Of a stretch of DNA of 39,439 nucleotides, positions 18,839 to 35,939 are shown piece by piece; position 1 is the stretch's first letter; the number at the start of each line of letters is the position of its first letter. The notes under the pieces are model-generated. The model made no database searches, was not told the origin of the DNA, and was given only the letters and a program-made list of their open reading frames with translations. The stretch comes from a candidate division WOR-3 bacterium (GTDB taxonomy: Bacteria > Hydrothermota > UBA3072 > B12-G15), in contig CBFGJG010000014.1 in assembly GCA_965649055.1 (NCBI GenBank), positions 1-39,439 on the forward strand. The letters are read 5' to 3'. A program made the position numbers and the translations under genes.

Positions 18839-21800
18839 TTAATATCTTATGGTTAATTTGAGCATTAAAGAACGTGAATCCATTGTATCTTTATATTTTA
18901 CCGTTCCCCAATTAGAGAATCTGTATTCTGCATTATATTCTACCTTCGCAGTTGGATAGAATTCTGTTCCTAATTGAAAATAAAGGTTTTTTGTTATGTA
19001 TTTACCCAAGGTTAATTTATAACTCTCATATTTCTCAATCTTTGCAACATCCATACCAAGAAGTTTTGAAACCTCTGATTGTAATCTACTTCTTGCCCAG
19101 AAATCAAAAGCCCTGAAAGCAGTGTTTGTGAATGTGTTATTAACAGATGATATATTTAACAGGTCCTGCCATGATATATTTAATCCAAGGACTAATATTA
19201 TTTCAGAAAGGTCTTTCGGAGGTTTTGAATATATACTGAATTCTGGTTTTTTCATACTTCCTGAAACACTCAAAATAATAGTATCGTTAGATCCTGCAAG
19301 ATGTGTTGCGAATATCTTAATATCAGGGTCTATATCACCCCTTTTTGAAAAAGTAAATTTACCATCTTCAATCTTGAATTCGGTAAACAAATATTTAAAA
19401 CTTCCCTGTAAAACCTTAAATTCACCTATTGCGGATGGTATACCCCAGTCGTAAAATATTTTTGCATTACCTGAGAATTCAATATCTGCATTTTCATTTT
19501 TAAGCCAAACATTTCCTTCATCAGCATAAACATTCATATTGATATACAATTTATTTAACTTATTTCCACTTTCCTTAAAATAAAAAGGCAGTGTTACAGT
19601 TGCCTCTTTGACATTAACATCGCCGAGTATTTTAACACCTTTTATATCATCAGCTAAATTTATTTTACAATCAAAACCTGCAGAATAATAATCATATGCA
19701 ATATAACCATTCTTAATGTTAAAATCAAGAGAATAGTTTTTATCCTTTATCCTGTAAAAACCATCAAAATTAAGATCTCCATTACCCAATTTACCTTTAA
19801 AATCTCTGAAATTTACTATATTGTTCTCGCAAATTACCTTTCCGTTTAAATTATAAACTGTTATTCCGGAATTTTTTTCAACAATATTTAAATTATTTAT
19901 ACTCATGTTACCAAAAACTTCAGGAGAGGAAGGCGTGCCTGAAAATTTTACCACACCTGAAACATCAGTATTTTCTGCTCTTACAAATTCTTTAAAAAGA
20001 ATAAATACCCAGTCCGATGCAGAACGGAGTTCAATATTACCAATGAAAAATTTATCTTTAAAATTATACTCACCCGAAATCTGTGAGCTTTTATTTCTCT
20101 CAAATATTTTCATTGACAATTCTGCTTTTTCTTTCGTCCCTGAAAGAAAAACTGTAATTGAGTCACCAAAATAATATTCCTCACCCACTTCTTTACCTTT
20201 AAGTGTTATAGTGTAAAAAGGATTTTCGAGTCTACCTGATATTGACATAACAATATCAATAAACCCGGATACTTCTCTGTCTAAAATATTTTTAATATCT
20301 CTTAGGTTTAAGTTCAAAACTGAAAGCCCACCTTCAATTTCACCATTTCTTTTTAAATTAAGATTTAATCCTGTTTTAAATTCACCACCATTTGAAAGAG
20401 AAAAACCTGAAAGATTGAGATTTCTATTTTGAAAAACGATTCTTGTTGGTGAGATGGAGAATATTGTATCAAATGATGTTTTTATATTAATCTTCTTTAT
20501 CTCCAGAATATTATTATTTTTAGAAATTTCTGTTTTCATAGTAAAATATTTTGATTTTATCAATCCTTTTGTTTCAAAATCCAAACGTTTGAAGAAACCT
20601 GTGAAATAAACATTTTCTATGTTTTTATTATAAATTTCAGCATCTGAAAAAAATATATCAAAATTTCCATTTAATCTTTTTATATCTTCAATTTCAAAAT
20701 TAACACCAGTGGATTTAAATGAAAAATTTCTTCCATTTATTCTCTCAAACCATAAAGAACCAGATGAATTATTCCCTTCAAAGGATATCTGGAAAGAAAC
20801 AACACCATCCTTTAAGAATTTACTAAAAAATGCCAGGTTATAAAAAGTCAGGTTATTACAATTTATGAATCCAGAAATGGAAGTATCACCAACAGAAAAT
20901 CTAATTTTTCCGTCTATCTTACCATTACTTGAATATATTTTCTCAAAATTAATGATTTTATCTTCATAATAGCCATTCAAGACAAGGGTATCTGAATATA
21001 AACCATAAAAAGTTCCCTTTAATGAAGAATTGAATTTAACCTTATCTCTTAAAATTGATAAAGTGATTCCACCGGAAAAAACTGTTTCTTTTATATTTTC
21101 AATCAAATTAGAAAGGTCAAATTTTTCAAAGTGAATCTTTAATTCCCTATTATCTTTTAATATTCCTTTAATTTCACCGGAGAAATTACTACTTCTAAAA
21201 TATATATTTTCATCTTTTACTCTGAAAGAGACATCTTTAATTTTATAATTTTTATAACTAATCGTGTTTATAAAACCATCACCCAATATTTTTTTATCCT
21301 TATAAATTAACTTAAAATTTATTTCACCATCTAAAGGTATATTTTTCAAATCGCTTAAAAACATTTTACCTGATATGGACAATGAATCAAGATTACCTCC
21401 AATTTCAAATTCAGAATTTTTAGATTTTACAGAATACAAATTTAATAAAATCTTATCACTGATTAATATATCCCCAAAAGCATCTTTTAAATCTATATAA
21501 TCTGTTAAGCAGGAAAATCTTTTTATTCTTAAAAGCATTTTTTTTTCATCAGATAAGAGGGAAAGTGTAGAATTTATATCAATAAATTGTTCATTAAATT
21601 TTAATCTTAAAGACTTAATTTTTATCTCGTTTATTTTCAGTGATGGAAATCTTATATCTGATTTTTCTCCATTTTTTTCAATTTTTAGAAATATTTCTGC
21701 ATCCTCAACACTTAAAAATCTTACCCTCTTTAATAAAAGTTCAAGTGGATAATATTTAATAATAATCCTCTCTGCAGTTCCAAAATCCTTTATTTTTAAT

Positions 21801-21985
21801 TCCTCAACATAAGATTCAAAAAGATCGATACTGATCTTTGAATAACTTGAACCTTCAGGTAATATGTTAGAAATGTAGTTTTCTAATTTCTGCTTTAAAA
21901 TAGAGCTTATCTTATTAAAAAATATTATAAAAAAGAGGATAATAATTAGTAAAAACGAAAAAGAGTACAGGAAAAATCTCTTCAT
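18839..21985 (-). CDS. tamB: Translocation/assembly module TamB (AsmA-like) protein
   Basis: N-terminal membrane anchor; long beta-taco-like repeats (ISGRLENP, FSGTPSSPEVFG); C-terminal DUF490-like SGSMKKPEF..YSKPP...LTLGKYITKNLY. Confidence 0.8.
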   Translation of the reverse strand: MKRFFLYSFSFLLIIILFFIIFFNKISSILKQKLENYISNILPEGSSYSKISIDLFESYVEELKIKDFGTAERIIIKYYPLELLLKRVRFLSVEDAEIFLKIEKNGEKSDIRFPSLKINEIKIKSLRLKFNEQFIDINSTLSLLSDEKKMLLRIKRFSCLTDYIDLKDAFGDILISDKILLNLYSVKSKNSEFEIGGNLDSLSISGKMFLSDLKNIPLDGEINFKLIYKDKKILGDGFINTISYKNYKIKDVSFRVKDENIYFRSSNFSGEIKGILKDNRELKIHFEKFDLSNLIENIKETVFSGGITLSILRDKVKFNSSLKGTFYGLYSDTLVLNGYYEDKIINFEKIYSSNGKIDGKIRFSVGDTSISGFINCNNLTFYNLAFFSKFLKDGVVSFQISFEGNNSSGSLWFERINGRNFSFKSTGVNFEIEDIKRLNGNFDIFFSDAEIYNKNIENVYFTGFFKRLDFETKGLIKSKYFTMKTEISKNNNILEIKKINIKTSFDTIFSISPTRIVFQNRNLNLSGFSLSNGGEFKTGLNLNLKRNGEIEGGLSVLNLNLRDIKNILDREVSGFIDIVMSISGRLENPFYTITLKGKEVGEEYYFGDSITVFLSGTKEKAELSMKIFERNKSSQISGEYNFKDKFFIGNIELRSASDWVFILFKEFVRAENTDVSGVVKFSGTPSSPEVFGNMSINNLNIVEKNSGITVYNLNGKVICENNIVNFRDFKGKLGNGDLNFDGFYRIKDKNYSLDFNIKNGYIAYDYYSAGFDCKINLADDIKGVKILGDVNVKEATVTLPFYFKESGNKLNKLYINMNVYADEGNVWLKNENADIEFSGNAKIFYDWGIPSAIGEFKVLQGSFKYLFTEFKIEDGKFTFSKRGDIDPDIKIFATHLAGSNDTIILSVSGSMKKPEFSIYSKPPKDLSEIILVLGLNISWQDLLNISSVNNTFTNTAFRAFDFWARSRLQSEVSKLLGMDVAKIEKYESYKLTLGKYITKNLYFQLGTEFYPTAKVEYNAEYRFSNWGTVKYKDTMDSRSLMLKLTIRY

Positions 21986-22434
21986 AGATTATCTACAATT
22001 CTATTTATAATGTCATTTATTTCATCTTTTTTTAATTTATCTCTTGAAAGACTAAACAATTTACTTAATTCATCTGTTATCCTTATTGTTTCAACCTTTA
22101 TCATCCCTATTTTTATGCTTTTGAAAATACAGGAAAAAATATAATCATCCATAAATATCTTAAAAAAAACCTTGTAAGTTTTCCCTTCTATTAATATCTC
22201 ACAGATATTCTCTTTTAAAAGGTTACCCATTTTTTCTATGGATGCTGCAATACCTGAAAGTATTGCAGAAAGCGAAAGTATGTTCAAATCCTTAAAAAAA
22301 CCATACTCATCAATTAGCTGCCCACTCTTGGTAGTTATAAAAGCACCATTCACCTTTGTCTTATCAATAAAATCTTTTAAGAGCTCCTGGGTTTTTTCTG
22401 AAGATATGGTTGATATAAATAATTTTTCTTGCAC
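21982..22434 (-). CDS. mglB: MglB-like Roadblock/LC7 protein
   Basis: GTG start; AFITTKSGQLI...LSLSAILSGIAASIEKMGNLLKE...IGMIKVE...TDELSKLF plus a C-terminal helix (DEINDIINRIVDNL) parallels Myxococcus MglB as recalled. Confidence 0.7.
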   Translation of the reverse strand: MQEKLFISTISSEKTQELLKDFIDKTKVNGAFITTKSGQLIDEYGFFKDLNILSLSAILSGIAASIEKMGNLLKENICEILIEGKTYKVFFKIFMDDYIFSCIFKSIKIGMIKVETIRITDELSKLFSLSRDKLKKDEINDIINRIVDNL

Positions 22435-22766
22435 TACAGCTGTCCCTCAATATATTTTGCTCCATTCTCCATCTCTACTTTTAAACTACCAACATTTGTA
22501 TCTGCGTCAGTTAAAGCAGAAAGTATGAAATTTTTTTTGGTAACAATAAAAATGTATCCATTTTCTCCTTTTATCATAAGAAAAACATTCTTCTTTATCT
22601 GAATCTTATCTGCAATTTCTGAAGCGATTTTGGCAGAAAGAGCCGAAACAAGTTCAGTATCGATGCCTTTTTGTGCAACTGATTTTATTACAACACCGTC
22701 AGGAGCAACAACATTTACACATAAGACCCCTTTTTCTTTTATTATGTTTTCAAGAACCTCATTCAT
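22434..22766 (-). CDS. Roadblock/LC7 domain protein
   Basis: KGVLCVNVVAPDGVVI...DTELVSALSA...IKGENGYIFIV...NVGSLKVEM. Confidence 0.85.
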   Translation of the reverse strand: MNEVLENIIKEKGVLCVNVVAPDGVVIKSVAQKGIDTELVSALSAKIASEIADKIQIKKNVFLMIKGENGYIFIVTKKNFILSALTDADTNVGSLKVEMENGAKYIEGQL

Positions 22767-22767
22767 A

Positions 22768-23529
22768 TCACAACCCCAGATTGACTTTTAATTTTTCAAA
22801 TGTTTCTTTGCCTTCAAGCATTAACATCCCGAGTTCCGCATTTTTGCTTGCTAATATAACAAAAATTACCGGTTTACTATAAAGTGCAAGCAGTCTTCCT
22901 TTGGGAAAATCAAAGAACATATATTCAAATAAACCCAGTTTAATCTTTTTAATAACATAGTCAATATCTGAATATACTGATGCAATCATTGCAGCCGTCG
23001 ATTCAACATCAACATATATCTTTAACTCCTCAGCAATAAGAATACCTGTTTCGTCTATAAGAATCGTTCCCATTATATCATCATTTTTATCACACATTTG
23101 TTTAAGTATAGCTTTTAAAGGAAGAATTCCTTTTTCTTCTTCTTTTACTTCTAATTTTTCTTCAGGTATTGTTTCTTCTTTTTCTGTAACTTCTATTTTT
23201 TTATCAGCTATTTCAACACTTATATCCTTTTCAACCTCTGGAATTAAACTAATCTTTGATGTTAACTTATCTTCTAATTCCTTTATTTCTTGATTTTCAG
23301 GGTCAATCCTCTTCCCTTTTTCTAAGATTTTTTTTGCATTGTCTTCATCTCCTTTCATCAAATATGCCTCTATAAGCTTTATATAGACTTTAATATATTC
23401 CTTTGTTTCACCTAATATTGAATTTAAAACTTCTATTGCCTGATCTATAAGATTGTTCTGGATATAAAAATCAGCAAGCATTATAATCATATCAACAGAT
23501 TTAGGAGAGCTCTTCAGTTTTTCATCCAA
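22768..23529 (-). CDS. TPR + Roadblock/LC7 fusion protein
   Basis: TTG at 23529 follows a strong GGAGGGGG RBS (the ORF track's 23562 start is likely too long). N-terminal TPRs (IDPENQEI), acidic linker, C-terminal GTILIDETGILIAE...ESTAAMIAS...AELGMLMLE roadblock. Confidence 0.8.
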   Translation of the reverse strand: MDEKLKSSPKSVDMIIMLADFYIQNNLIDQAIEVLNSILGETKEYIKVYIKLIEAYLMKGDEDNAKKILEKGKRIDPENQEIKELEDKLTSKISLIPEVEKDISVEIADKKIEVTEKEETIPEEKLEVKEEEKGILPLKAILKQMCDKNDDIMGTILIDETGILIAEELKIYVDVESTAAMIASVYSDIDYVIKKIKLGLFEYMFFDFPKGRLLALYSKPVIFVILASKNAELGMLMLEGKETFEKLKVNLGL

Positions 23530-24496
23530 TTTCCCCCTCCAGTTTAACAATTTCTTCAACAAGATTTTTTAAACCTGAAACCATTTCTTCGACTTCCCTT
23601 GTTGCGAGTTTATTCCTCGAAATTTTCAGGAATTTATCGAAAAACTCTAAACATTTTTTAAAATCAAGAATTTTTAAATTAAAATATCCAAGATTATAGA
23701 ATAAAGTAGGTTCATCCGGATATTTTTGCAATAATTCTTCCATATATTTGATTCCTTCTTCAAATTTCTTCTCCTTCCATAAATTATCTATATTAATTAT
23801 TTCTTCTTCTTTCAGCCTTTCCTTTCTCCTCTCTTCCTCTGTTATTTTTAAAAGTCCACTCATATAAAGCCCGTACAATGCCTTAATAGTCTTAAATTCA
23901 TTCCCTTTAATTTTAACAATATCCTTAATGGATCTTTTCCCATCTATCATGGATAATATTTCCCATTCTTCGCTTGTAAGACTTATATAGTCTTTTTTTA
24001 CAATTTCATCAGATATTGAAAATATTGTGGACTCGGGTGGGAGTGCAGATAACAATCTTTCAGTCTCGTCAATTCTTCTTGCACCTTCCATTATGAGATT
24101 TTCAATCCTCATATTCAATTCGAGTTCCTTTAATGGTTTTTTTTCTGTTTCTTCAAAATTAAAAAAACCATCTTTTAACTTTAACAGCGAGAAAATTTCA
24201 TTTTCAACTATTGATTTTAATACAGAAGATACCTCTTTTATATCAACCATGTTCCCGGTTATTAACTCTTCTATATCTTCTCTGTCATTTATTGAGTTTA
24301 TTATTCCCCTTTTCTGTAATTCCTGAATCATCTTTTTCCCCATATCAAGATAAATAAGGAAGCCTTCTCTAAAATAAAGTATGTATTGTAAACCATCTGA
24401 AGTAATAATTCTAAGCTGTCCGGTCTTTTTTGAAAATGAGATTAGCTGAAAAAGCTCAAAAAGACTGAGTTCTTTTATTGGTCCTTCAATTGCCAT
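23522..24496 (-). CDS. DUF4388 (PatA-N-like) domain protein with C-terminal TPR
   Basis: MAIEGPIKELSLFELFQLISFSKKTGQL; GFFNFE; IENLIMEGARRIDE; LTSEEWEILSMIDGKRSI; C-terminal YPDEPTLFYNLG. Confidence 0.88.
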   Translation of the reverse strand: MAIEGPIKELSLFELFQLISFSKKTGQLRIITSDGLQYILYFREGFLIYLDMGKKMIQELQKRGIINSINDREDIEELITGNMVDIKEVSSVLKSIVENEIFSLLKLKDGFFNFEETEKKPLKELELNMRIENLIMEGARRIDETERLLSALPPESTIFSISDEIVKKDYISLTSEEWEILSMIDGKRSIKDIVKIKGNEFKTIKALYGLYMSGLLKITEEERRKERLKEEEIINIDNLWKEKKFEEGIKYMEELLQKYPDEPTLFYNLGYFNLKILDFKKCLEFFDKFLKISRNKLATREVEEMVSGLKNLVEEIVKLEGEIG

Positions 24497-27121
24497 TTAA
24501 ACCTCTTTCGACAAATCAAGCAATTTCTTTGCTGCGTTTATAGCATCCTGTGCTTCTTTACTTTCTTCTGTGTCAGGCCATTTTTTTATTATTTCCTGCC
24601 ATATATTTATGGCCCTTTCAAATTTCCCTAGTCTTGAAAGAACTGATGCAAGCAGTTTGTAAGCATTTACGTTTTTTTCATCAAGACTTATTGCATATTC
24701 GAGTGAGCTAATAGCTTTTGATTCCTGATTCATCTTATAATATATCATACCTTCAAGTAAGTAAATATCGCTATCACCGAAAGAAATTTTTTTCAAAAAT
24801 TCCAGTGTTTTCAATGCACTTTCAAACTCAAACAATTTAAATTGAACCTTAACCATCAATTTAAGATAATCAGGATTTTTCTCGTCCATCTTTATAATAC
24901 TTTCAAGAAGGTTTTTGCTATCAAAATAATTATTTTCTGAATAATAAATCTTTGAAAGAATAAACATCGCTTCCTTGTCTTCGACTCTCTGAACAACATC
25001 TTTAAGGATTTCTTTTGCTTTCTCAATTTTACCTGCATTTGCAAGCAGTTTACCATACCTTGTTAATATCTCATCCTTTTTAGAAATACCAACTATCTTC
25101 TCAAGTGTCTCAATTGCACCTTCAATCTCTCCCTGTCTTTCCTGCAGTTCTGAATACAGTATAAGCCCTTCAATATCTTCCGGGTTTCTTTCAAGAAGTA
25201 ATTCTATCCTCATTCTTGCAAAGAAGTAATCACCATTTTCCATAAAAACTTTTATAAGTTCTTTTAATGCCTCTTCATCATCCTGAATATTTTTTAATAG
25301 ATCAATTGCTTCTCCATATAATTTTTTCTTTCTGTAAATTTTTGCAAGTAATATTGTCGCCTTTTTGTTCTCAGGTTGATGTCTTATTACTTCCTGTAGT
25401 TTTTCAGTTGCTTTATCAAAATTCCCAATTTCGTAAAGATTTTCAGCCTGTCTTTGTATCTCGGCCAAATCTTCTTTTATTTCTTCTTTGGTGAATAAAT
25501 CTTCAAAAAGATTCTCTTCTTCAACGACCGGTTCTCCTGTCTTCTCTATTTCCATCTCATGGGTTAATTCTCTTGCGATAAGAACATCAAGTTTATCAGA
25601 ATAAACATCAATTCCGAGTTTAAATCTATTACTCGTGTAATAAGGATTTATTTCAAGTGCTTTTTTTGTAAACAGTAATGCTTCCTCAAACTTTCCTATT
25701 CTTGAGTAAGCGAAACCTAAATTGTAATATGCTTCTGAATATTGTGGATCATTTTTCAATGCAGATTTGAAACAATGTATTGCATCATCAAATCTTGAAG
25801 TGTTAAGATAAAGAAGTCCTAAATAATTGAATGCAATCGGATAGTTATCCTTAAGTTCAAGTGCCTTTTTGAAATATGATTCAGCTTTCTCATAATCTGC
25901 TTCCTGTAAAAAAATAAGCCCCATATTCAGATAGGCATCTGCATATTCGGGGTCAATTGAAATAGCTTTCAAAAAATATTCTTTACCTTTATCTTTTTCA
26001 CCTAAATGATAATGGACAATACCAAGATTATTGTATGCTACAACATATGTTGGGTCTATCTCTATTGCCTTCAAATACCATGACATTGCCTCTTTAAGTC
26101 TACCAAGCCTATGACATGCAACACCAATATCATTAGGAATTTTGGGAGAACTTTTATCTCTATTAAGTGCTTCGGAATATTCAATTATTGCCTTCTCATT
26201 ATCATTTTTTAAAAGATATATTTCACCTATATTTTTTTTCACTATTACGTTATCCGGTTCTGCTTCAAGTGCTGTGATAAATTCTTTTAAAGCCTCATTG
26301 AACAATCCTTTATTTCTGAAAACCATTCCCATTGTGTAATGGGAAAGGAATTTATTATCGGGTCTGGTAACATCCGTTTCAGCAAGAAATTCTTTATAAC
26401 CGTTGTGTCTATAAAAATCAAGTCCTAAACTTGGTTGCGTATTTGCAAGGGCTGGATTAAGTTTAACAGCTATCTTTGTTTCTTCTTTTGCCTTCTCATA
26501 ATCACCTTTTTCTCCATAAACAAATGCAAGAAGAAAATGTAATTCTGCATTATTAGGATTTATTGCTATTGCGGATTTAAATTCATTAATTGATTTATCA
26601 AGTAAACCAAGATTATAGTAAACCTCACCAAGATGTCTGTATATTTCAGGAGAATTCTCAATTTTTTTCAGTCTTTTGAATATCTCAGCTGCATCATCAT
26701 AGAAACCTATTGCCTTTAGTGTAATACCATAATTTTTCAATATTTCTACATCATCAGGTTTTATATTGAGATAGGATTTAAAATGTTTTAATGCCTTAAA
26801 AAACTGTCCGGTATTTTTATATGCAATAGCAAGCCTCTTAATAATTTCAGTATTCTGTGGTGAAAGTTCAAGTTCCTGTTCAAGGCTTCCAATATCCTTA
26901 TCTATGTATCCCAATTTCTGATAAATAAAATCAAGGTTATTTTTTGCAAGTGTAAAATGTGGATCTATCTCAAGCGCTTTTTTCAGTTCATCTATGGCTT
27001 CCTGATAAAGACCTTTATTGTAATAAACCACTGCAAGATTATTATGTGCTGAAGGGTCTTTCTGATCTATTTTACTCGCAAAAAGTTTGAGTATCTCCTT
27101 TTCCTTTTCGCTTATATTCAT
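24497..27121 (-). CDS. Large cytoplasmic tetratricopeptide-repeat protein (about 20 TPRs)
   Basis: Repeated AHNNLAVVYY/AYNNLGIV/AYYNLGFAY...ALEIDP motifs; no signal peptide; acidic linker near aa 520-555. Confidence 0.9.
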   Translation of the reverse strand: MNISEKEKEILKLFASKIDQKDPSAHNNLAVVYYNKGLYQEAIDELKKALEIDPHFTLAKNNLDFIYQKLGYIDKDIGSLEQELELSPQNTEIIKRLAIAYKNTGQFFKALKHFKSYLNIKPDDVEILKNYGITLKAIGFYDDAAEIFKRLKKIENSPEIYRHLGEVYYNLGLLDKSINEFKSAIAINPNNAELHFLLAFVYGEKGDYEKAKEETKIAVKLNPALANTQPSLGLDFYRHNGYKEFLAETDVTRPDNKFLSHYTMGMVFRNKGLFNEALKEFITALEAEPDNVIVKKNIGEIYLLKNDNEKAIIEYSEALNRDKSSPKIPNDIGVACHRLGRLKEAMSWYLKAIEIDPTYVVAYNNLGIVHYHLGEKDKGKEYFLKAISIDPEYADAYLNMGLIFLQEADYEKAESYFKKALELKDNYPIAFNYLGLLYLNTSRFDDAIHCFKSALKNDPQYSEAYYNLGFAYSRIGKFEEALLFTKKALEINPYYTSNRFKLGIDVYSDKLDVLIARELTHEMEIEKTGEPVVEEENLFEDLFTKEEIKEDLAEIQRQAENLYEIGNFDKATEKLQEVIRHQPENKKATILLAKIYRKKKLYGEAIDLLKNIQDDEEALKELIKVFMENGDYFFARMRIELLLERNPEDIEGLILYSELQERQGEIEGAIETLEKIVGISKKDEILTRYGKLLANAGKIEKAKEILKDVVQRVEDKEAMFILSKIYYSENNYFDSKNLLESIIKMDEKNPDYLKLMVKVQFKLFEFESALKTLEFLKKISFGDSDIYLLEGMIYYKMNQESKAISSLEYAISLDEKNVNAYKLLASVLSRLGKFERAINIWQEIIKKWPDTEESKEAQDAINAAKKLLDLSKEV

Positions 27122-27738
27122 TATATCAGCCCCATAGCTTTAAGAATCTTATCAAGTCCGATTGGGTCAGGGATCATAAGTAATATCCCTTCAAGTTCCA
27201 CATCCTGTTCAGCAAAATAAAAACTTGTTTCAACGCATATTGCAAGCTCTTTCTCAGCTGTAAAGTCGGTGTAAACAGTTGTTAGCACAGATGCAAGATT
27301 ATCAAGAACAAAAGCAGGAACAGAAGGAAGAACCATAATCCCGAGAAATTCAGATATAGCACTGAGGTAAGAACTTGAAACTATATTAGCAAGTTCCTTG
27401 ATTGAAGAAATTTCCATCTCCCCAAACTCAGTAGTAGTTCCAAAAGGCTTTCCAAAAAGAATATCAAGTAAAAGTTTTGATTTTTCCTCTGAAAAAACAA
27501 GAAGATTCCTTCCTGTAAAATCACCAAAGAAATTTGTAAGTATAGCCGAAACGATTGGTGGTTCCTCACCAAAAATATAGGGAACATCTTCAAGTTTCAT
27601 CACTTTAACTTCCGGGACTTTTACCATTATACTTTTTCCCATCATTTGAGAAAGTGCTGATGCAGCATGACCGCTTCCAATATTTGCAGCTTCTTTTATA
27701 CCATCAAGATGTAAATTGTTCAGTTCATCCAGTCTCAT
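27121..27738 (-). CDS. cheC: Chemotaxis phosphatase CheC
   Basis: Two ExxN sites: KEAANIGSGHAASALSQM and KELANIVSSSYLSAISEF; PSVP motif. Confidence 0.93.
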   Translation of the reverse strand: MRLDELNNLHLDGIKEAANIGSGHAASALSQMMGKSIMVKVPEVKVMKLEDVPYIFGEEPPIVSAILTNFFGDFTGRNLLVFSEEKSKLLLDILFGKPFGTTTEFGEMEISSIKELANIVSSSYLSAISEFLGIMVLPSVPAFVLDNLASVLTTVYTDFTAEKELAICVETSFYFAEQDVELEGILLMIPDPIGLDKILKAMGLI

Positions 27739-27746
27739 TTTTCCTC

Positions 27747-29480
27747 CTAACCTATTATGCTTGGTATATCAAGTATCAAACATGGGTTTCCATCACCTAT
27801 TATAGTAACACCGCTATATTCCCTCATAGTTCTTATAGCATAAGGAAGATGTTTTACAACTATCTCCATTGACTCTCCAAGTTCATCAACGGTCAAAATA
27901 TATTTTTCACCTTCAATATTTATAATTAATGCAGGCATACTTTCATCATACTCTTCTTCTTTTAATTTTAAAACAGAAGCCAGAGAATAAATAGGAATAA
28001 TCTCATCCCTTAACAAGGTAATTGGTTTTCCAAGTAGATAAGAAAATTGCTTCTTTGAAAGATTTATTGTCTCGAGAAGAAATGTCATAGGTATGGCAAA
28101 ACTATGTTCGAGAATATTAACAATATAAGATTTAATAATAGCCATTGTAAGAGGGACAAAAAGATTAACTGTTGTTCCCTCTCCAAACTTACTATGTATT
28201 TCAACATTACCACCTATTTTTCTCATAACATCACGAACTACATCAAGCCCAACACCTCTACCTGAGACAGTGCTGAGATTATCTTTCGTCGAGAAACCAG
28301 AAAGGAAAAGCAAAGAAACAAGGTCTTTCTCTGACATCTTATTTGCCTCTTCATCGTTAGCACAATAACCTAATTCTACCGCTTTTCTTCTAACCTTTGA
28401 AAAATCTATACCTCTGCCATCATCCGAGACTGTTATTTTTATTACTCCTTTTTCCCTCGAAGCATTGATAGTTATCTTTGCTGTTTCAGGTTTTCCTTTT
28501 CTGATTCTTTCTTCCACTGATTCAATACCATGATCAACAGAATTTCTTATTATATGAATAATAGGGTCGGAGATACTTTCGATTAAAGACCTGTCAAGTT
28601 CAATATCACTTCCTGTTATCTCAAGGTCAACAGATTTACCCATTTCTTTTGCTAAATCCCTAACATACCTTGGGAATCTGTCAAATATATGTGAAAGTGG
28701 GACCATCCTTATTTTCATCACCACATCCTGCAATGAAGAGATAAATCTGTTGTGTGTTTCTAAGACCTGTGAAAGCATTTCGTTCTTTGTTTCTTTTGCA
28801 ATATTTATAAGCCTTTCTTTAGAAATAACAAGTTCTGCTACAATATTCTGGAGATTATCAAGGTCTTCTATACCTATCCTTAATTCTTTTAATTTCTTTA
28901 TTTCCTTTTCTTCTTCAATTTTTTCTTCCTCTATCTCCTCTATACTTTCTATTTCTGAAAACTCGGATTTTACTTTCTTTATATTTGATACATCGGATAC
29001 ATTAATAATAAATTCAAAATAATCTTTCCCTTCTTTAATCTCTTTCATAGTGGGTGATACAGGATTCACTTCTGCAAGCATTTTCATCCTGTTTAATATC
29101 ATAAAGAATCTTGCTGTTGGAAGCATTGTGTCTTTTTTTAATACAACCTTCACATTTTTTTTATCCATTCCGATAAAAGATTCTATCTTATCAATTGACC
29201 TGATTATTTCACTTATAATATCATCTGTTATCTCTGTTTTTCCTTCTTTTACATCCTGTAAAATATTTTCAATCCTGTGTGAGATTGTAACAATATCTTC
29301 ATATCCCATTGTTGCAGCCATACCTTTTATTGTATGAAAAATTCTGAATATTTCTTCTATGGTCTTGCTATCATGTTTCTTTTCAAATTCGGGAATTATC
29401 AGATTTAGTTTATCTATATAAGAGTTAACTTCGCTAATAAATAGTTTCTTATATTTCTCAAATTGTCCGTTTTGATACAT
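27747..29480 (-). CDS. cheA: Chemotaxis histidine kinase CheA
   Basis: Hpt IFRIFHTIKGMAATMG; compact Firmicutes/Thermotoga-type P2; RMVPL, HIIRNSVDHGIE, DDGRG, GFST, SGRGVGLDVV; CheW-like P5. Confidence 0.96.
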   Translation of the reverse strand: MYQNGQFEKYKKLFISEVNSYIDKLNLIIPEFEKKHDSKTIEEIFRIFHTIKGMAATMGYEDIVTISHRIENILQDVKEGKTEITDDIISEIIRSIDKIESFIGMDKKNVKVVLKKDTMLPTARFFMILNRMKMLAEVNPVSPTMKEIKEGKDYFEFIINVSDVSNIKKVKSEFSEIESIEEIEEEKIEEEKEIKKLKELRIGIEDLDNLQNIVAELVISKERLINIAKETKNEMLSQVLETHNRFISSLQDVVMKIRMVPLSHIFDRFPRYVRDLAKEMGKSVDLEITGSDIELDRSLIESISDPIIHIIRNSVDHGIESVEERIRKGKPETAKITINASREKGVIKITVSDDGRGIDFSKVRRKAVELGYCANDEEANKMSEKDLVSLLFLSGFSTKDNLSTVSGRGVGLDVVRDVMRKIGGNVEIHSKFGEGTTVNLFVPLTMAIIKSYIVNILEHSFAIPMTFLLETINLSKKQFSYLLGKPITLLRDEIIPIYSLASVLKLKEEEYDESMPALIINIEGEKYILTVDELGESMEIVVKHLPYAIRTMREYSGVTIIGDGNPCLILDIPSIIG

Positions 29481-29485
29481 ATTGC

Positions 29486-29851
29486 TTACAGTTTCAAAAC
29501 TCTTTGAACGGCTTCAAGAACCCTTGAAGGTTGAAAGGGTTTCACAACATAATCCTTTGCTCCTGCCTGTATTGCCTCAATAACAAGTGTTTGATGCCCC
29601 ATAGCAGAAACCATTATTATTTTAGCAGAAGGGTCAATCTTTATAATACCTTTAACTGCATCTATACCACTCATATCAGGCATTATAATATCCATAGTAA
29701 CAAGGTCTGGTTTGAGCTGTGAATATTTATCAATAGCTTCCCTACCATTCTCAGCTTCTCCAACAATTTCGTATCCTTCTTTCTTCAGTATATCTCCAAG
29801 CATTTTCCTCATAAATATTGCATCATCGACTATTAAAACCCTGACAGCCAT
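29486..29851 (-). CDS. cheY: Chemotaxis response regulator CheY (Bacillus/Thermotoga type)
   Basis: VDDAIFMR, DLVTMDIIMP, SAMG, KPF; single receiver domain. Confidence 0.95.
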   Translation of the reverse strand: MAVRVLIVDDAIFMRKMLGDILKKEGYEIVGEAENGREAIDKYSQLKPDLVTMDIIMPDMSGIDAVKGIIKIDPSAKIIMVSAMGHQTLVIEAIQAGAKDYVVKPFQPSRVLEAVQRVLKL

Positions 29852-30271
29852 TTATCCTCCTTTTTCTTCTATTATTTTCTGAATATTTAGCAAAAGGAAC
29901 TTATCTTTGTCTACATTAAATACACCAGAAAGAAACTCTGGCGGGATTAGTTTTTTTAATGACTTTTGTGGAATATTAATTTCGCTTTCATCTATCTTCT
30001 TTATACCTTCAATTGTGTCAACAGTTAACCCGACCTTTTCATCACCATATTTTGTTATTACAACTATCGGGCTTTCATTTGTGCCTTCACCTTTGAATTT
30101 CTTTTTAAGATTTATCACCGCTATTATTTCACCCCTTAAATTAGCAATACCTTCAACAAATTTTGGTGCAAGTGGAACCTTTATTATTTTTAAACTTTCT
30201 ACTATCTCTACAACTTTTGAAAGTTCAATGCCGTAACCTTCATTGTTCAATTTAAAAGTTAGTATCTCCAT
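29852..30271 (-). CDS. cheW: Chemotaxis adaptor CheW
   Basis: FKLNNEGYGI..V.EI, VPLAPKFVEGIANLRGEIIAVINL, GLTVD. Confidence 0.95.
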   Translation of the reverse strand: MEILTFKLNNEGYGIELSKVVEIVESLKIIKVPLAPKFVEGIANLRGEIIAVINLKKKFKGEGTNESPIVVITKYGDEKVGLTVDTIEGIKKIDESEINIPQKSLKKLIPPEFLSGVFNVDKDKFLLLNIQKIIEEKGG

Positions 30272-30274
30272 TTT

Positions 30275-33200
30275 TCACTCCAGCCAGACGAGTTCAAATT
30301 TATTGTTTTCAAGTATATTTGGAACAAATCCTCTCACATTTTCCCTCACAAGATAAAGGTCTAATCCATGATATAAAAATATTACGGGAACATCCCTTAC
30401 AATCATCTCCTCTGCTTTTCTATAAATATCCCTCCTCACTTTTGGATTAAGTTCTCTCATTCCTTCTTCTATAAGTTTATCTACCTCTGGATTTGCATAG
30501 AAACTTGTATTACCAGGATCTCCCCTGTTCTTTGAATGGAATAATGGATAAAGGAAATTATCAGGATCACCATTATCGGATGACCATCCAAGCATATACA
30601 TTTGATGTTCTCCTTTATGGACAAGTTTTAGGAATTCCTTCCATGGATGTGTTCTAATATCTATATTAATACCAAATTTCTTAAACTGGTTTATCAGATA
30701 TTCAGCCCTTTTCATATTAGCAGCTGATGCGCTAACATCAAGAATATATGTATCTGGAAGACCATTTGGGTATCCTGCCTCTTTTAGTAATTCTTTTGCT
30801 TTATCAGGATTATAATCATATCCTTTTAAAGAGGGGTTATAACAATCAACACCAGGGGGAATAGGGCCTTTTGCAGGTGTTCCGTAACCATTATCAAGTT
30901 TCTTTAGCATATCTACCCTGTCTATCATATGGCTCATTGCCCTTCTTATCCTTACGTCAGCGAATGGCAGGTCTTCTTTTAACATATTAAAACCATAGTA
31001 TTGAAAATCCAAAGACATTTCCCTTACAAGGCATTTCTTCAAATTATCATCTTTCAGTATCCTGTCTATCTGCGTATATGATATACTTGCGATATCTACA
31101 AGATTTGCAATAAACATATCAAGTGATGTCTTCCTTCCCTCTTCATCTTTGCTTATAGTAAATTTTATTCTATCAACATAAGGTCTCCCAAATATATATT
31201 TATCAAATGCCTCAAGGATTATATGCTCACCCTTTTCCCATTCAACAAACCTGAAAGGACCTGTACCGATAGGATTATCATCGGGAGATTCTTTTAAGTC
31301 TTTTGGAATTATTGAACCACCAACAGTTGCAAGATTTGCAAACAAAGGAACATAGGTAAATTTCATATCCATTTCAAATGTATACCTGTCTATCACCCTA
31401 ACATCTTTTACAGAATCAAAGAAGAAGGCATTTGGTCCTGTCATGGTCCTCTTGTAAGAATAAACAACATCTTCCGATGTTATCTGTGAACCATTGTGTG
31501 AAAATATATTATTCTTCAGTCTGAAAGTTATTTTTTTACCATCATCAGAAATCTTCCAAAATTCGAGTAATGACGGGAAAACCCAGGTCTTGTATGCAAA
31601 TTCAAATATTCCCTTATATATCTGATGACCTATCCTACTTGATGTTGCATCTCCCATCTTAGAAGGGTCAAGGGTAACAGGGTCTGAAGCAAGATAAAGC
31701 CTCAGTGTATCTTTACCCTTTCCATTGATTATCTCTAAATTTGAAAACTGAGATTTTACATCATCAATTATCTCCTTCCCTTCATTTATCTTTCCCTGGA
31801 CATTTTTTATATCAAAAAGAGCAGTATCAAAAGAAGAAATTATGTTATCGAAATTTTTTGTTATATCTTCAATCAGGGTCTTCTGGGATATTACATTCTT
31901 TCTAAAATCATCAGAAATCTGCTCAATAAATTTCAAACTCATATTTGTCTCTGAAATAATAAGTGATGAAGATTCGAATTTTTCAATAAGATTTTTTAGC
32001 GAATTTGTAAGTTCATTAAAATTAATTGATAAAGAATTAACATCATTTTTTACTTCCCCAAGAAATTCATCAATATCAATTGATATTTTTCTGAATTGGT
32101 CTGATAGTTCTACCATCTGTTCAACGATCACATTTAGGTCTTCTCTACCAGCCCTTGCAGATTCAAGTTTTGCATAAAGGGAAAGATCCCTTAGATTCTC
32201 TGTTGCATTCTGAATAGACCTTCCTTTCTTCTTAAAGTTTGAAAACTCTTCCTGAAGATACTTATTTGTTAAAGATGCATTATCCACATATTTCAGTAGT
32301 TCCGTATCCTGCTCCTTTAACTTAATCAGAAGAGAGCTAAGTGTTTCACTTGTCCTTGTAATCTCTTTTGCACTTGAGATTATCTTATCAGATATATAAG
32401 TAAATCTACTCAATGAATCCTTTAAATTTTCAAGGACCGAGAGTTCTATCACATTTTTTATATTCTCAAAATTAATAGTCTTAAACTCATTCTCTATAAC
32501 ATTAAAAAGATAAAGAAAGTTCTGTATGTAATTTAAAAGAAATTCCTTGGAAATTCCCATATACATTTTCTTTTCGCTTGTCTCGATAAAATTGTTTATA
32601 ATATTCTTAAACACTTCATACAATGATTCTTTACTCCGGACAACCAGATTCACCCTGCTTGAGTTAAGGTAAAGATTTTCTGATAGATTTTTTATATTTA
32701 TTGTAGCATCTTCAAGAACTGACTTCGCTATGTTTTCCTTTTCACTTTCTGTTTTTAGAACATAGGCTACTTCATCGAAATTCCTGAATATATCTTTAAG
32801 ATTATCAATATCCTGTCTTAGGCTATCTGTAATTAAACCTATTTCACTTATAGGCTTTTTAAGTTCTGAAAAATTCTCTTTTAAGGCATTTGAAAAATTT
32901 CTTATTTCCTTTATTGAATTAACAATATTATTTACAATATCCATAGAACCCTGGGAGAAATTCCCGAGAAATCTCGCCACAACTTCAAAACCTTTTCCTT
33001 CTTCCCCTGAGTGATAGGCCTTTATTTCCGCATTTCTTGCAGTATTCATACTCCTTTCATTAAGTTCATACAACTTACCCATCAAACCAACTATGCCTTC
33101 ACACCTTATATTAAGTTCTTCAAGTAAATTTGTTGTATTGTTTGAAATTTCTATGAGACCGTTTATGATATCAAGTATATCCTGTAGATTTTCTATCACA

Positions 33201-33436
33201 ATATTTAACTTTTCTTTATTTTGTGTAAGATTGTTAGTTATTGATTCCTCAGTATCAAAAAATAACTTTATAGAATTGTATAGCATATTTAACTTATCTT
33301 TTATCTCTATAAGAATATTAGATATCATAGAATTATTTTCTGATATCGTATCTGAAAAATAAGTAACTGACTTTATAATATCATCTATCTTTTCTTTAAA
33401 TTTGTTAATACTTAATGTTATATCTAATTTTTCCAT
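30275..33436 (-). CDS. Soluble chemoreceptor: two tandem MCP signalling hairpins fused to a family-5 (DppA/OppA) solute-binding domain
   Basis: aa ~1-570 coiled-coil with two tip motifs (NTARNAEIKAYHSGEEGKGFEVVA; LSLYAKLESARAGREDLNVIV). aa ~575-1053 SBP_bac_5 (DPVTLDP, PIGTGPF, DVRIRRAM, YDYNPDKAKELLKEAGYPNG, GWSSDNGDPDNFL). No signal peptide or TM segment. Confidence 0.85.
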   Translation of the reverse strand: MEKLDITLSINKFKEKIDDIIKSVTYFSDTISENNSMISNILIEIKDKLNMLYNSIKLFFDTEESITNNLTQNKEKLNIVIENLQDILDIINGLIEISNNTTNLLEELNIRCEGIVGLMGKLYELNERSMNTARNAEIKAYHSGEEGKGFEVVARFLGNFSQGSMDIVNNIVNSIKEIRNFSNALKENFSELKKPISEIGLITDSLRQDIDNLKDIFRNFDEVAYVLKTESEKENIAKSVLEDATINIKNLSENLYLNSSRVNLVVRSKESLYEVFKNIINNFIETSEKKMYMGISKEFLLNYIQNFLYLFNVIENEFKTINFENIKNVIELSVLENLKDSLSRFTYISDKIISSAKEITRTSETLSSLLIKLKEQDTELLKYVDNASLTNKYLQEEFSNFKKKGRSIQNATENLRDLSLYAKLESARAGREDLNVIVEQMVELSDQFRKISIDIDEFLGEVKNDVNSLSINFNELTNSLKNLIEKFESSSLIISETNMSLKFIEQISDDFRKNVISQKTLIEDITKNFDNIISSFDTALFDIKNVQGKINEGKEIIDDVKSQFSNLEIINGKGKDTLRLYLASDPVTLDPSKMGDATSSRIGHQIYKGIFEFAYKTWVFPSLLEFWKISDDGKKITFRLKNNIFSHNGSQITSEDVVYSYKRTMTGPNAFFFDSVKDVRVIDRYTFEMDMKFTYVPLFANLATVGGSIIPKDLKESPDDNPIGTGPFRFVEWEKGEHIILEAFDKYIFGRPYVDRIKFTISKDEEGRKTSLDMFIANLVDIASISYTQIDRILKDDNLKKCLVREMSLDFQYYGFNMLKEDLPFADVRIRRAMSHMIDRVDMLKKLDNGYGTPAKGPIPPGVDCYNPSLKGYDYNPDKAKELLKEAGYPNGLPDTYILDVSASAANMKRAEYLINQFKKFGINIDIRTHPWKEFLKLVHKGEHQMYMLGWSSDNGDPDNFLYPLFHSKNRGDPGNTSFYANPEVDKLIEEGMRELNPKVRRDIYRKAEEMIVRDVPVIFLYHGLDLYLVRENVRGFVPNILENNKFELVWLE

Positions 33437-33445: not shown

Positions 33446-33474
33446 AATTTACTTTACAAAAATAGTTATGTCAA
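33446..33474 (-). promoter_or_regulatory. Putative sigma70 promoter of the chemosensory operon
   Basis: TTGACA (33469-33474), 17 nt, TAAATT (33446-33451); 9 nt to the ATG, no SD. Confidence 0.55.
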
Positions 33475-33484: not shown

Positions 33485-34108
33485 TTATTTGTTTGTTATG
33501 GTATAGTTTCTTTCAATCCTGTATACACCCGCAACGATAGAACCATTCGCTGCATTATTCAATTCCGAATAATTTAAACTTAATAGATAAAAAGTATAAT
33601 CACCGGCAAAGGTGAATATGTCAGGATATATTATTATTGAATTGGTATTCAAATATCTATCGTAAATTTTTTCAAAACCTTTATATATCAGAACCCTGTA
33701 AGCATCAGGTTCTTCACCTAAAAATGTCCAGGAGATTGTATCACCATTCTCATCTGATAAACTCAAAACACCATCAAATTGCTCAAGGTTTATACCTTTT
33801 GGTATCTTCACAGAGCAATAAACCGTTTTATATCCTTTTGCCTCAAAGGAAACATTGAACTGATTATCAGGGTAGACATAATCATTCAGGAACTTCCTTA
33901 ATGTATCAACATATATAAAAGAATAACCTGAGTCAATTGTAATAATAACATCCTTTATAAGCTTACCCTCTGAACTTTCAATATAACCTGAGAACCATCC
34001 ACCTTCTGAATTTGAATATTCAAATGAGACATATACCCAAATTTTCTTCTCGAAAATACATCCAGAAAAAGTTATAATCAAAAACAAAATTATAAATATT
34101 TTTCTCAT
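33485..34108 (-). CDS. Hypothetical lipoprotein
   Basis: MRKIFIILFLIITFSGC lipobox; beta-rich Ig/FN3-like mature part. Confidence 0.75.
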   Translation of the reverse strand: MRKIFIILFLIITFSGCIFEKKIWVYVSFEYSNSEGGWFSGYIESSEGKLIKDVIITIDSGYSFIYVDTLRKFLNDYVYPDNQFNVSFEAKGYKTVYCSVKIPKGINLEQFDGVLSLSDENGDTISWTFLGEEPDAYRVLIYKGFEKIYDRYLNTNSIIIYPDIFTFAGDYTFYLLSLNYSELNNAANGSIVAGVYRIERNYTITNK

Positions 34109-34200: not shown

Positions 34201-34483
34201 GAAAATAGAAAACATTTTTAAGGTTTTGTCATGTGAAATAAGATTAAGGATAATTGAACTACTTTCAAGTGGTTCAAAGAATGTTTCTGATATTGTAAAA
34301 ATGTTCAATCTAACTCAACCAACAGTATCACATCATCTAAGGGTTCTTGAAAAAGAAGGTATTGTAAAAAGGGAAAGACACAAGAAATGGGCTCTTTACA
34401 GTTTAAAAAATGAAATTATAGAGAAACTAAAGACATATCTTGACACAATCAATAAAGGTGTAAAAGATGAAAAAGGGAGGTAG
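34199..34483 (+). CDS. ArsR/SmtB family transcriptional regulator
   Basis: FKVLSCEIRLRIIELL...NVSDI...LTQPTVSHHLRVL...GIV...YSL. Confidence 0.93.
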   Translation: MKIENIFKVLSCEIRLRIIELLSSGSKNVSDIVKMFNLTQPTVSHHLRVLEKEGIVKRERHKKWALYSLKNEIIEKLKTYLDTINKGVKDEKGR

Positions 34484-35939
34484 TATGAGTATTGGAGGAT
34501 TGAAATCGATATTTGGAAGGACTATTCTGAATTCAACAACAAATATCATTTCTAATAACTTTTTAAGGAGAGAAATCTTAAAAGAGGTTGAACAGACAAT
34601 GTATAGGGATCTTATAAAGAAGAACCCTGACGGAAGGCCAATAAAAGTCCAGGAAGACAAATATTATGCCGGAAGGGCTCTTCTTAGGAGTATTGATAGG
34701 GCAATTGCAAAAGGTAATCTTTCAAAGAATGCAGTCCGTGGTCTTCTAAATGTCTTCTTGGGGAATGTTTTCTATAATGGTTTCTATTTCCGGAGAAAAT
34801 ATGCTGAAAAACATGGAAGAACTCCACCGCTATTTATCACAATAAGCCCTACAAAAATCTGTAATTTAAAATGTATAGGTTGTTATGCAGGAAGTGATGG
34901 CTTACATACCGAAAGGTTACCTTTTGATGTTTTCGACGAAGTTCTAAATCAGGCAAAGGAATTATGGGGTTCAAGGTTCTTTGTCATTTCAGGTGGTGAA
35001 CCACTGCTTTATAAAGATGATGGGAAGACTATATTTGACATATTCAAAAAACATAATGACTGTTATTTTCTTATGTACACAAATGGGACATTGATCGATA
35101 AAGATTGCGCAAAAAAACTTGCAGAACTGGGGAATGTAACCCCTGCAATATCCATTGAAGGTTTGAAGGAAGAAACAGATAAAAGAAGGGGTAACGGAGT
35201 ATTTGAGAAGATATTGGTTGCCTTTGAAAACCTTAGAAGTGAAGGTGTTCCATTTGGTGTATCTATAACAGCTACAAGGGATAATGTTAATACTATATTA
35301 AGTGATGAATTCTTTAATTTCTACTTCAAAGAACAGGGTGCAATATATGGATGGGTCTTCCAGTATATGCCTATTGGCAGGGGGTTTACAGTTGATCTTA
35401 TGATAACACCTGAAGAGAGGCTGAAGATGTTTAACTGGGCATGGAGGATGGTTAAAGAAGAAGAAATATTCATAATGGATTTCTGGAATTCTGCTAATGC
35501 ATCTGACGGTTGTATATCAGGTGCAAGGTCTGGTGGTTATTTTTATATAAACTGGAATGGTGATGTAATGCCCTGTGTATTTATACCTTATTCAGTTGAT
35601 AATGTTATCCAGAGATTCAAGGAAGGTAAGAATCTTAATGATATAATTGAATCTGATTTCTTTAAAGATATAAGGAAATGGCAGGATGAATATGGGTATA
35701 GAAGGAATCCGGAAGAACACGGTAACTGGCTTATCCCTTGTTTCATCAGGGACCATCATGATGTATTTATGGAAACTTTGAAGAAACATAAACCGAAACC
35801 TATAGATGAAGATGCTGACATAGCGATAAATGATGAAGATTATCATAGAAGATTAATTGAATATAACAGGAAAATGGAAGAATTGACCAAAAAAATCTGG
35901 GAGGAGAAGTATCTTGCCCCTGAAAGGAGAGATAAATGA
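34467..35939 (+). CDS. Radical SAM protein with SPASM/twitch-like C-terminal cysteines, function unknown
   Basis: CNLKCIGC (CxxxCxxC), SGGEPL, YTNGTLI, GCISG...YINWNGDVMPCVF, PCFIRDH. Alternative start 34485. Confidence 0.9.
   Translation: MKKGGSMSIGGLKSIFGRTILNSTTNIISNNFLRREILKEVEQTMYRDLIKKNPDGRPIKVQEDKYYAGRALLRSIDRAIAKGNLSKNAVRGLLNVFLGNVFYNGFYFRRKYAEKHGRTPPLFITISPTKICNLKCIGCYAGSDGLHTERLPFDVFDEVLNQAKELWGSRFFVISGGEPLLYKDDGKTIFDIFKKHNDCYFLMYTNGTLIDKDCAKKLAELGNVTPAISIEGLKEETDKRRGNGVFEKILVAFENLRSEGVPFGVSITATRDNVNTILSDEFFNFYFKEQGAIYGWVFQYMPIGRGFTVDLMITPEERLKMFNWAWRMVKEEEIFIMDFWNSANASDGCISGARSGGYFYINWNGDVMPCVFIPYSVDNVIQRFKEGKNLNDIIESDFFKDIRKWQDEYGYRRNPEEHGNWLIPCFIRDHHDVFMETLKKHKPKPIDEDADIAINDEDYHRRLIEYNRKMEELTKKIWEEKYLAPERRDK

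Follow-up and report, generated by a model that had tools for sequence, protein, structure and literature searches.

The chemosensory pathways Dif and Frz of Myxococcus xanthus are among the closest described counterparts of the system treated here, an operon on a 39,439-nucleotide contig from a candidate division WOR-3 bacterium (GenBank assembly GCA_965649055.1, contig CBFGJG010000014.1; the whole stretch is called the window). Dif and the Dif-like clusters of Geobacter have in common with this operon the gene order MCP-cheW-cheY-cheA-cheC (MCP, methyl-accepting chemotaxis protein), a CheC phosphatase, and a non-flagellar context; the Geobacter clusters also contain CheR and CheD (PMC4671073, PMC2577667). 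The DifA-type receptor is described there as a 44H protein of ~415 amino acids (aa) with two transmembrane segments and a tiny periplasmic loop, the M. xanthus CheY homolog DifD as a phosphate sink rather than an output, and the output itself as exopolysaccharide via EpsW (PMC4671073, PMC2577667). The Frz system shares with the WOR-3 system a chemosensory input, the Ras-like MglA, a Roadblock GTPase-activating protein (GAP) with accessory partners, a tetratricopeptide repeat (TPR) scaffold, and type IV pili (PMC4316618, PMC11580455). The TPRs of SgmX bind a receiver domain and MglA (PMC4316618, PMC11580455), and the partner RomY tunes the GAP activity of MglB (PMC9481161).

A split chemosensory and MglAB module

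An F1-like chemosensory and MglAB module is split in this genome, and the WOR-3 operon forms its upstream half. The genome comprises 2.08 Mb in 85 contigs, of which the window is C14, and is 93.8% complete; the operon consists of eleven tightly packed minus-strand open reading frames (ORFs) running from 33436 to 21982. Their Pfam families follow one another as MCPsignal, CheW, receiver, CheA (Hpt, P2, dimer, HATPase, and CheW domains), CheC, TPR, DUF4388 with TPR, TPR with Robl_LC7, and two further Robl_LC7, with inter-ORF gaps, from the receptor to the MglB paralog, of 3, 0, 5, 8, -1, 0, -41, 1, and -1 nt. DUF4388 is the PATAN domain (bioRxiv 10.1101/2021.06.11.447907). The original prediction, made from the sequence alone, had proposed the order MCP-cheW-cheY-cheA-cheC-TPR-DUF4388/TPR-TPR/Roadblock-Roadblock-MglB with tight spacing, including three Roadblock genes, and this is borne out by the ORFs, the gaps (-41 to 8 nt), and the Pfam matches, Robl_LC7 being found in all three. 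It had also placed the circuit in a non-myxobacterial lineage, and the closest named homologs are indeed labelled candidate division WOR-3 (67% identity for the receptor and 82% for CheA).

Close spacing is weak evidence for an operon because, by crude ORF calls, 938 of the 1399 co-directional ORF pairs in this genome (67%) are separated by 10 nt or less; runs of at least ten genes make up 4 of 814. We therefore rejected spacing as proof of an operon, and it is the gene order, rather than the spacing, that exceeds chance. Among 20 receptor loci fetched from relatives, 14 retain the full eleven-gene order and 16 have the che, TPR, and Roadblock genes joined, while in four the receptor lies apart; three of these four genomes contain an intact che-TPR-PATAN-Roadblock block elsewhere (L113, L115, and L117). 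In one family (L026, L031, L045, and L049), the receptor gene is found outside the che operon, in divergent orientation, beside the pilT-accC-mglA half of the module.

A metagenome scan by alignment to the TPR protein gave 187 loci, of which we used the best 80; these are redundant and TPR-selected, so each count refers to the loci informative for it. In 73 of 74 loci, cheC stands immediately before the TPR gene, and the TPR-Roadblock and Roadblock genes follow the TPR gene in 54 of 54. The fused receptor is present in 40 of 51 loci, the PATAN gene in 37 of 54, and the MglB paralog in 33 of 50. The cheC-TPR junction and the 16 joined receptor loci thus sustain the proposal that the che and TPR/PATAN/Roadblock genes form a conserved unit. 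One locus (L233) contains cheY-cheC twice before the TPR gene and no gene labelled cheA.

In six of 50 loci (L186, L190, L194, L197, L209, and L227), the MglB paralog directly precedes mglA, with one unlabelled ORF between them in L197, and these six unsplit loci continue with cheR and, where the locus reaches that far, cheD-cheB. Genome G035 likewise contains one array, cheY-cheA-cheC-TPR-PATAN-TPR/Roadblock-Roadblock-MglB-DnaA-like-PATAN-cheR-cheD-cheB, with a PilT/PilB-family ATPase gene divergently upstream. In the window's genome, the MglB paralog is not beside mglA, and we infer that the array was most likely cut between mglB and mglA. The P-loop Arg (GPGR) occurs in all 20 cluster-linked MglAs, including the one encoded on contig C4, while the MglA of contig C23 has Leu; because of this cluster-type Arg, the C4 gene is taken as the mglA separated from the MglB of the operon. 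What was originally proposed as a single-operon circuit is therefore half of a split module, the other half of which is on C4 and joined to it in relatives.

The remainder of the signalling system

A genome search found one cheA and one cheC, both in the operon. No chemotaxis-type signalling system other than the one to which this operon contributes half was found in the bacterium. The C4 half, identified by sequence and BLAST, contains in order pilT, accC, the second mglA of the genome (mglA2), a DnaA-like gene, a PATAN-MshEN-TPR gene, cheR, cheD, cheB, a TPR gene, an ExeA-like ATPase gene, and two cheW genes; the DnaA-like, cheD, and ExeA-like labels are our reading of the sequences. The CheW proteins of the operon and of C4 comprise 139, 215, and 135 aa. 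No cheR, cheB, cheD, or flagellar gene occurs among the 30 window proteins scanned, as had been stated at the outset, but since cheR-cheD-cheB is on C4, the absence of these three is a property of the window and not of the genome. The accompanying claim that the system lacks CheR and CheB as Dif does fails for this reason, as well as on the joined arrays of G035 and the six metagenome loci.

Elsewhere, the genome contains a standard mglB-mglA pair on C23 and three membrane receptors, on C6, C16, and C39. The C16 receptor matches a receptor located inside the C4-type cluster of relatives (43% identity to the nearest). Strict methylation motifs number five in the C6 receptor, four in the C16 receptor, and none in that on C39. 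The search for pilus genes that had been suggested recovered PilM, three PilB-like and five PilT-like ATPases, and three prepilin-motif ORFs in addition to MglA and MglB, and there are four further PATAN proteins. As originally noted, the window itself contains two pilT genes, a tandem pair encoding PilT-family ATPases (7141-9295, minus strand).

Chemosensory proteins

The cheW (29852..30271, minus strand; 139 aa, PF01584 E 8e-31) and cheY (29486..29851, minus strand; 121 aa) genes follow the receptor gene. CheY is of the Thermotoga/F1 type (1TMY E 4e-52), with T. maritima CheY as the nearest solved structure, and its phosphorylation-site residues are invariant; in 15 relatives, CheY is 74–91% identical to it. 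CheA (27747..29480, minus strand; 577 aa) contains an Hpt domain with His49, P2, dimerization, HATPase, and P5 domains, and the CheC phosphatase (27121..27738, minus strand; 205 aa, PF04509) retains both E-x-x-N motifs and matches NF041093 with E 2.8e-45, under the model cut-off. The best NCBIfam models, CheA_Halo, CheY_Halo, and CheC_Thtogales, are of archaeal or Thermotogales F1 type, and all of these matches lie under the cut-off; the nearest named matches outside the group are from Archaeoglobus. By these proxies and the T. maritima structure, CheA, CheY, and CheC look F1-like, in line with the class originally expected for CheA.

The F1 class is characterized by CheC together with CheD, a P2-containing CheA, and 44H receptors. 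All of these are found here: CheC and CheD are both present, CheA has a P2 domain, and the C6 receptor, in which 154 residues (about 22 heptads) follow the tip, is of the 44H type. The flagellar or archaellar output of the class (FliM/FliY) is the exception. In agreement with the original prediction, no flagellin and no FliM/FliN domain (FliMN_C) was matched in the 93.8% complete genome, with controls positive in 4/14, and a scan of the genome's ORFs for a FliM-like CheY-binding motif gave two matches, both outside the module.

A soluble receptor with two hairpins

The first gene of the operon (30275..33436, minus strand) encodes a soluble chemoreceptor of 1053 aa, with two tandem MCP hairpins and a C-terminal DppA-like SBP_bac_5 solute-binding protein (SBP) domain (about residues 575–1053). 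The SBP_bac_5 match covers residues 621–972 (Pfam E 4.8e-89); that to MCP is weak (E 5.2e-9). No hydrophobic segment is present (maximum 19-residue hydropathy 1.29, and 1.12–2.01 in 20 relatives), so that, in contrast to Dif and to the DifA-like MCP first proposed, this receptor has no transmembrane segment and the operon has no DifA-type receptor.

Residues 1–570 form two repeats (hhalign probability 98.9, E 1.7e-16). Each repeat is a hairpin with arms of about 143 + 143 residues, and the tips lie near residues 145 and 431. We compared these tips to the canonical motif in the genome's own C6 receptor. Hairpin 1 retains Asn in 21/21 sequences as well as the G-x-G-F turn, with Lys replacing Glu in 20/21, while hairpin 2, whose loop is variable, retains Glu and Arg (21/21 each), with Tyr or Phe replacing Asn. 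Trimer contacts involve the Glu/Arg pair of this motif. No methylation motif is present in the window receptor and none is conserved in its family (one strict match in 21 sequences, at a tip).

The AlphaFold (AF2) model has a predicted local distance difference test score (pLDDT) of 86 over the full length and 80 for residues 1–575, with helices at 2–142, 144–285, 290–319, 333–429, and 432–565. A 199-residue single-chain four-helix bundle aligns with model residues 93–483 (Z 17.8, root-mean-square deviation 2.3, 199 aligned), and 100-residue bundles align with about residues 120–453. Because helical bundles score high by shape alone, we used only the aligned ranges and not the fold scores; these ranges would place both tips at one end. 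The model thus predicts a single-chain four-helix pseudo-dimer in which the two tips share one end and the DppA-like domain occupies the opposite end, although this fold-back is a monomer prediction and a swapped, DosM-like rod dimer is also compatible.

In the model, the C-terminal domain shows the whole SBP_bac_5 fold (5U4O, TM-score to target 0.92), and it is closest in sequence to DppA/HbpA-type proteins. Trp951 (20/21), Asp954 (18/21), and Trp932 (19/21) are conserved, and Trp932 and a W-x-x-D-N-G-D-P-D-N-F segment align with DppA. The arginine by which DppA binds the carboxylate of its peptide has no counterpart at the corresponding position. In Escherichia coli DppA-Tap, an SBP_bac_5 domain similarly serves as ligand sensor for a chemoreceptor (PMC8050422), whereas the WOR-3 domain is fused into the receptor chain at its C-terminus and, lacking a signal peptide or transmembrane segment, is cytoplasmic. 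Two tandem signalling domains in a soluble receptor also characterize DosM of Vibrio cholerae (VC1403, class F9), a rod that bears a tip at either end, that occurs with a triple CheW, and 98% of whose homologs are described as lacking sensory domains (PMC9321776, PMC7534058). The WOR-3 receptor differs in its SBP_bac_5 domain, its two divergent tips, and the predicted fold-back with tips at one end, and its system differs from F9 in having CheC/CheD and single-domain CheWs with no triple CheW.

A profile search of 1.84 billion representatives returned some two dozen proteins that match the N-terminal region of the receptor end to end; the design is therefore rare. Several genomes of one family (G153–G162, and G040:C13:5764-8811, locus L028) also encode, outside the operon, another double-hairpin paralog whose sequence is more divergent.

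TPR, PATAN, and Roadblock proteins

Downstream of cheC, an 874-aa TPR protein (24497..27121, minus strand), most conserved in its N-terminal ~70 residues, is a candidate scaffold. Its look-alikes are commonest in Gemmatimonadota in 6 of the 10 clusters listed, which we treat only as a lead with regard to the Gemmatimonadota neighbourhoods mentioned in the original prediction. It is followed by a PATAN and TPR protein of 324 aa (23522..24496, minus strand; PF14332 E 1.4e-22), in which the MshEN motif was not found and whose gene is absent from the operon in one sub-lineage. The cyanobacterial PatA-type (PATAN-REC) systems likewise combine PATAN with a chemosensory kinase and type IV pili, and the PATAN domains of Synechocystis bind PilB1/PilC (bioRxiv 10.1101/2021.06.11.447907). 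In contrast to PatA, the WOR-3 PATAN is fused to TPR rather than to a receiver and is dispensable from the operon in that sub-lineage.

Three Roadblock genes complete the operon. The first (22768..23562, minus strand) encodes TPRs, an acidic linker, and a Roadblock domain (264 aa), although the start may lie ~30 codons later, the L164 relative having 232 aa. The second (22434..22766, minus strand; PF03259) encodes a stand-alone Roadblock of 110 aa whose profile best matches other Roadblock/LC7 proteins (MglB E 5e-4, MglC E 0.25) and which, by these profile scores, is no clear MglB or MglC ortholog, a difference from the Frz/Mgl system. The last gene (21982..22434, minus strand) encodes a 150-aa MglB paralog with a C-terminal helix, as its family profile matches MglB chains in the PDB (E 9e-28 to 6izw_B, over 2–155), and the original MglB label accordingly stands. 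It is the predicted GAP of the C4 mglA product. A fifth Roadblock gene (G000:C53:5792-6773, L010) directly follows a DnaJ-domain, TPR-looking gene, with no mglA nearby.

Comparison with described chemosensory systems

We compared the operon with five Dif-like loci from 81 genomes of a deltaproteobacterial phylum, used in place of DifE. These have the order cheR-MCP(~419 aa)-W-Y-A-C-D, matching published Dif-like clusters, and no Roadblock or MglA gene was found within the fetched stretch of any (0/5), whereas TPR, PATAN, Roadblock, and MglAB genes are embedded in the WOR-3 array. In a 45-row CheA tree, the WOR-3 and Edwardsbacteria rows form one clade (95/99), whose nearest branch, that of the Dif-like rows, is weakly supported (86/67); long branches are flagged, and DifE itself is absent. 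The system thus resembles Dif in gene order and perhaps in ancestry, but fails to match it in receptor type and in CheR/CheB, all of CheR, CheB, and CheD being present.

Frz has a cytoplasmic receptor, FrzCD, as does the operon, but its kinase is a CheA-CheY hybrid, and it is not known to have CheC or CheD. In M. xanthus, mglA is found apart from the genes of its partners (PMC4316618, PMC11580455), while the WOR-3 genes form one array. The WOR-3 TPR protein is like SgmX in repeat type only; that SgmX carries DUF4388 is not borne out by its published description, which gives 14 TPRs only. PATAN-MglA/MglB neighbourhoods have been published (PMC4316618, 10.1101/2021.06.11.447907), as have Dif-like clusters and double-domain receptors. 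For the joined module and the receptor fusion, we found no description in the literature searched, whose coverage mostly excludes subscription journals.

Distribution in the phylum

Of 242 phylum genomes that are at least 80% complete, 78 match the N-terminal profile of the receptor at 1e-25; 74 of these matches are strong (E <1e-40), and the weaker ones (G072, G109, G130, and G131) were set aside. The 74 receptor-bearing genomes contain no flagellin; all encode MglA, with at least two copies in 65, and 73 encode PilM. None of the six genomes with flagellin is among them, and two of these six (G038 and G232) have no cheA match at 1e-40 to the window CheA. Because these genomes are related, their counts are not independent, and we give no statistical test. 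One genome contains four tandem mglA copies (G118:C12:208594-211541). A broad phylum range for the receptor was rejected, as a TA06-labelled locus has the same array as a genome of the phylum sample. Only an Edwardsbacteria-labelled record is plausibly from outside the phylum, and its receptor and che genes are on separate contigs.

Neighbouring genes

The tight run extends past 21982, as tamB (18839..21985, minus strand; PF04357) overlaps the last operon gene by 4 nt. It directly follows the MglB paralog in 18 of 50 informative metagenome loci, all in the window's class where checked, and is probably a neighbour conserved within the class only and outside the module. A sigma70-like promoter consensus (10/12; 33446..33474, minus strand) occupies the 48-nt gap upstream of the receptor gene, but 117 such sites were found against 90 +/- 9 in shuffled sequences, so that the call is weak evidence. 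Further upstream is a lipoprotein-like ORF of 207 aa without a family match (33485-34108, minus strand), which is found near the operon only in two genomes of the same family, with other genes intervening. Divergent from the operon is the gene for a 490-aa radical SAM/SPASM protein below all NCBIfam cut-offs (34467-35939, plus strand). At the other end of the window (1172-7062, minus strand), a PorV/PorQ-family gene (NF033709 E 8e-46), a gene whose 690-aa product matches no Pfam family, and the gene of a TonB-dependent receptor form a cluster resembling the type IX secretion system or outer-membrane clusters of the Fibrobacterota-Chlorobiota-Bacteroidota type.

Proposed mechanism and alternatives

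On balance, we lean toward a reading in which an F1-like pathway with an MglA/MglB switch steers type IV pili, with CheY~P tuning the MglB/Roadblock GAP complex on MglA. A cytoplasmic ligand, likely short peptides, would close the SBP domain, shift helix 4, and alter CheA activity without adaptation, while the C6 and C16 membrane receptors, with their methylation tracts, would supply an adapting input through CheR, CheB, and CheD. CheA would phosphorylate CheY, and CheC, with CheD, would dephosphorylate it. With no FliM found, the likely docking site of CheY~P is the 874-aa TPR protein, the scaffold most tightly linked to cheC, by analogy with SgmX, whose TPRs bind both a receiver and MglA. 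We rank CheY-TPR above CheY-PATAN because cheC-TPR persists where PATAN is lost (17 of 54 loci). The scaffold and the two accessory Roadblocks may adjust how strongly the MglB paralog acts as a GAP on MglA2, in the way that RomY tunes MglB. MglA2-GTP and the PATAN proteins, possibly reaching PilB as in Synechocystis, would set where PilB/PilT work and thereby the piliated pole or the reversal frequency. We raise only tentatively the possibility that the chemosensory systems of WOR-3 and neighbouring lineages constitute a class not yet described. In it, a flagellar-type CheY would signal directly into the GTPase switch, with the TPR scaffold reading CheY~P and setting the activity of MglB and two accessory Roadblocks as GAP on MglA, and the receptor would be a single-chain dimer whose hairpins divide the work and which senses cytoplasmic peptides with an internalized DppA domain.

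Several observations weigh against pilus steering through this chain. The losses of PATAN just mentioned are matched by those of the MglB paralog (17 of 50 loci), and the joined array of G035 contains no mglA. The tandem pilT pair of the window is kept in five of five relatives but with its best match on other contigs than the che module, so that it gives no evidence of linkage, contrary to the original prediction, and was ruled out as a linked partner. The surface of CheY is so like that of T. maritima CheY that it is uninformative on a new target, and the CheY homolog of Dif is a sink. Among the 168 genomes other than the 74, 6 encode flagellin, 78 MglA, and 105 PilM; with MglA and PilM thus common in the receptor's absence, and kin not independent, the phylum profile is necessary and not specific. 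Three single-contig genomes (G166–G168) encode two MglAs with no CheC or receptor match, so that MglA2 works there without this pathway. The MCP+SBP gene of G072 is not flanked by che genes, and that genome gave no match to MglA.

We consider it unlikely that the system follows Dif-type logic, in which CheY would be a sink, CheA would act via another response regulator on a surface polymer, adhesion, or secretion, and MglAB/PATAN would report pilus or contact state, with pili upstream. The MCP-W-Y-A-C order of M. xanthus dif and the deltaproteobacterial clusters, the precedent of DifD, an operon receptor whose want of methylation motifs echoes CheR-independent Dif, the weakly nearest position of the Dif-like CheA clade (86/67 on the opposing branch), and the ExeA-like ATPase read in the C4 half all speak for it. 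However, the operon has no DifA-like receptor, CheR/B/D are present, no polysaccharide or orphan response-regulator gene is conserved in the arrays examined, and MglAB is embedded in the array, as in none of the five Dif-like loci. Similarly improbable, in our judgement, is that MglA polarity is controlled but the output is not twitching, with pili or another polar machine serving adhesion, DNA uptake, cell-cell contact, or envelope assembly. The five PilT-like and three PilB-like ATPases and the four other PATAN proteins would allow several outputs, tamB is coupled to the operon in the window's class, and the MglA of Bdellovibrio is reported to serve predation, but the tamB adjacency is lineage-limited (18/50), and the system has the full adaptation set (CheR/B/D and CheC). 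Such a set is a requirement of gradient-following. We give very little credence to the che and Roadblock/TPR genes being co-transcribed neighbours with separate functions: although 67% of co-directional pairs are equally tight and tamB illustrates that unrelated genes can hitch-hike, the cheC-TPR junction outlasts loss of the receptor, PATAN, and MglB, relocation of the array, and GC contents of 30–62%, and che genes are found on both sides of the polarity genes in unsplit arrays.

Implications

The route from a chemosensory kinase to MglA is open even in Myxococcus, whose genes are scattered; a 2014 review gives direct contact between FrzZ and RomR as not shown at that date. Here, one array keeps the candidate chain of CheY, TPR, PATAN, two Roadblocks, MglB, and MglA, which reduces to a short list of pairs. 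It suggests that an F1-type pathway, usually flagellar, was re-wired to pili in a large uncultivated lineage, and if the reading is true, the operon would supply the direct connection from chemosensory kinase to MglA that has been missing. If the receptor is an asymmetric single-chain dimer that binds peptides through its cytoplasmic domain and has no methylation sites, it would provide a new route for an internal, non-adapting signal into the array, and its hairpins, one with the Asn and G-x-G-F tip and the other with the Glu/Arg pair, would divide labour and thus be a natural tool for separating trimer contacts from kinase contacts in receptor arrays.

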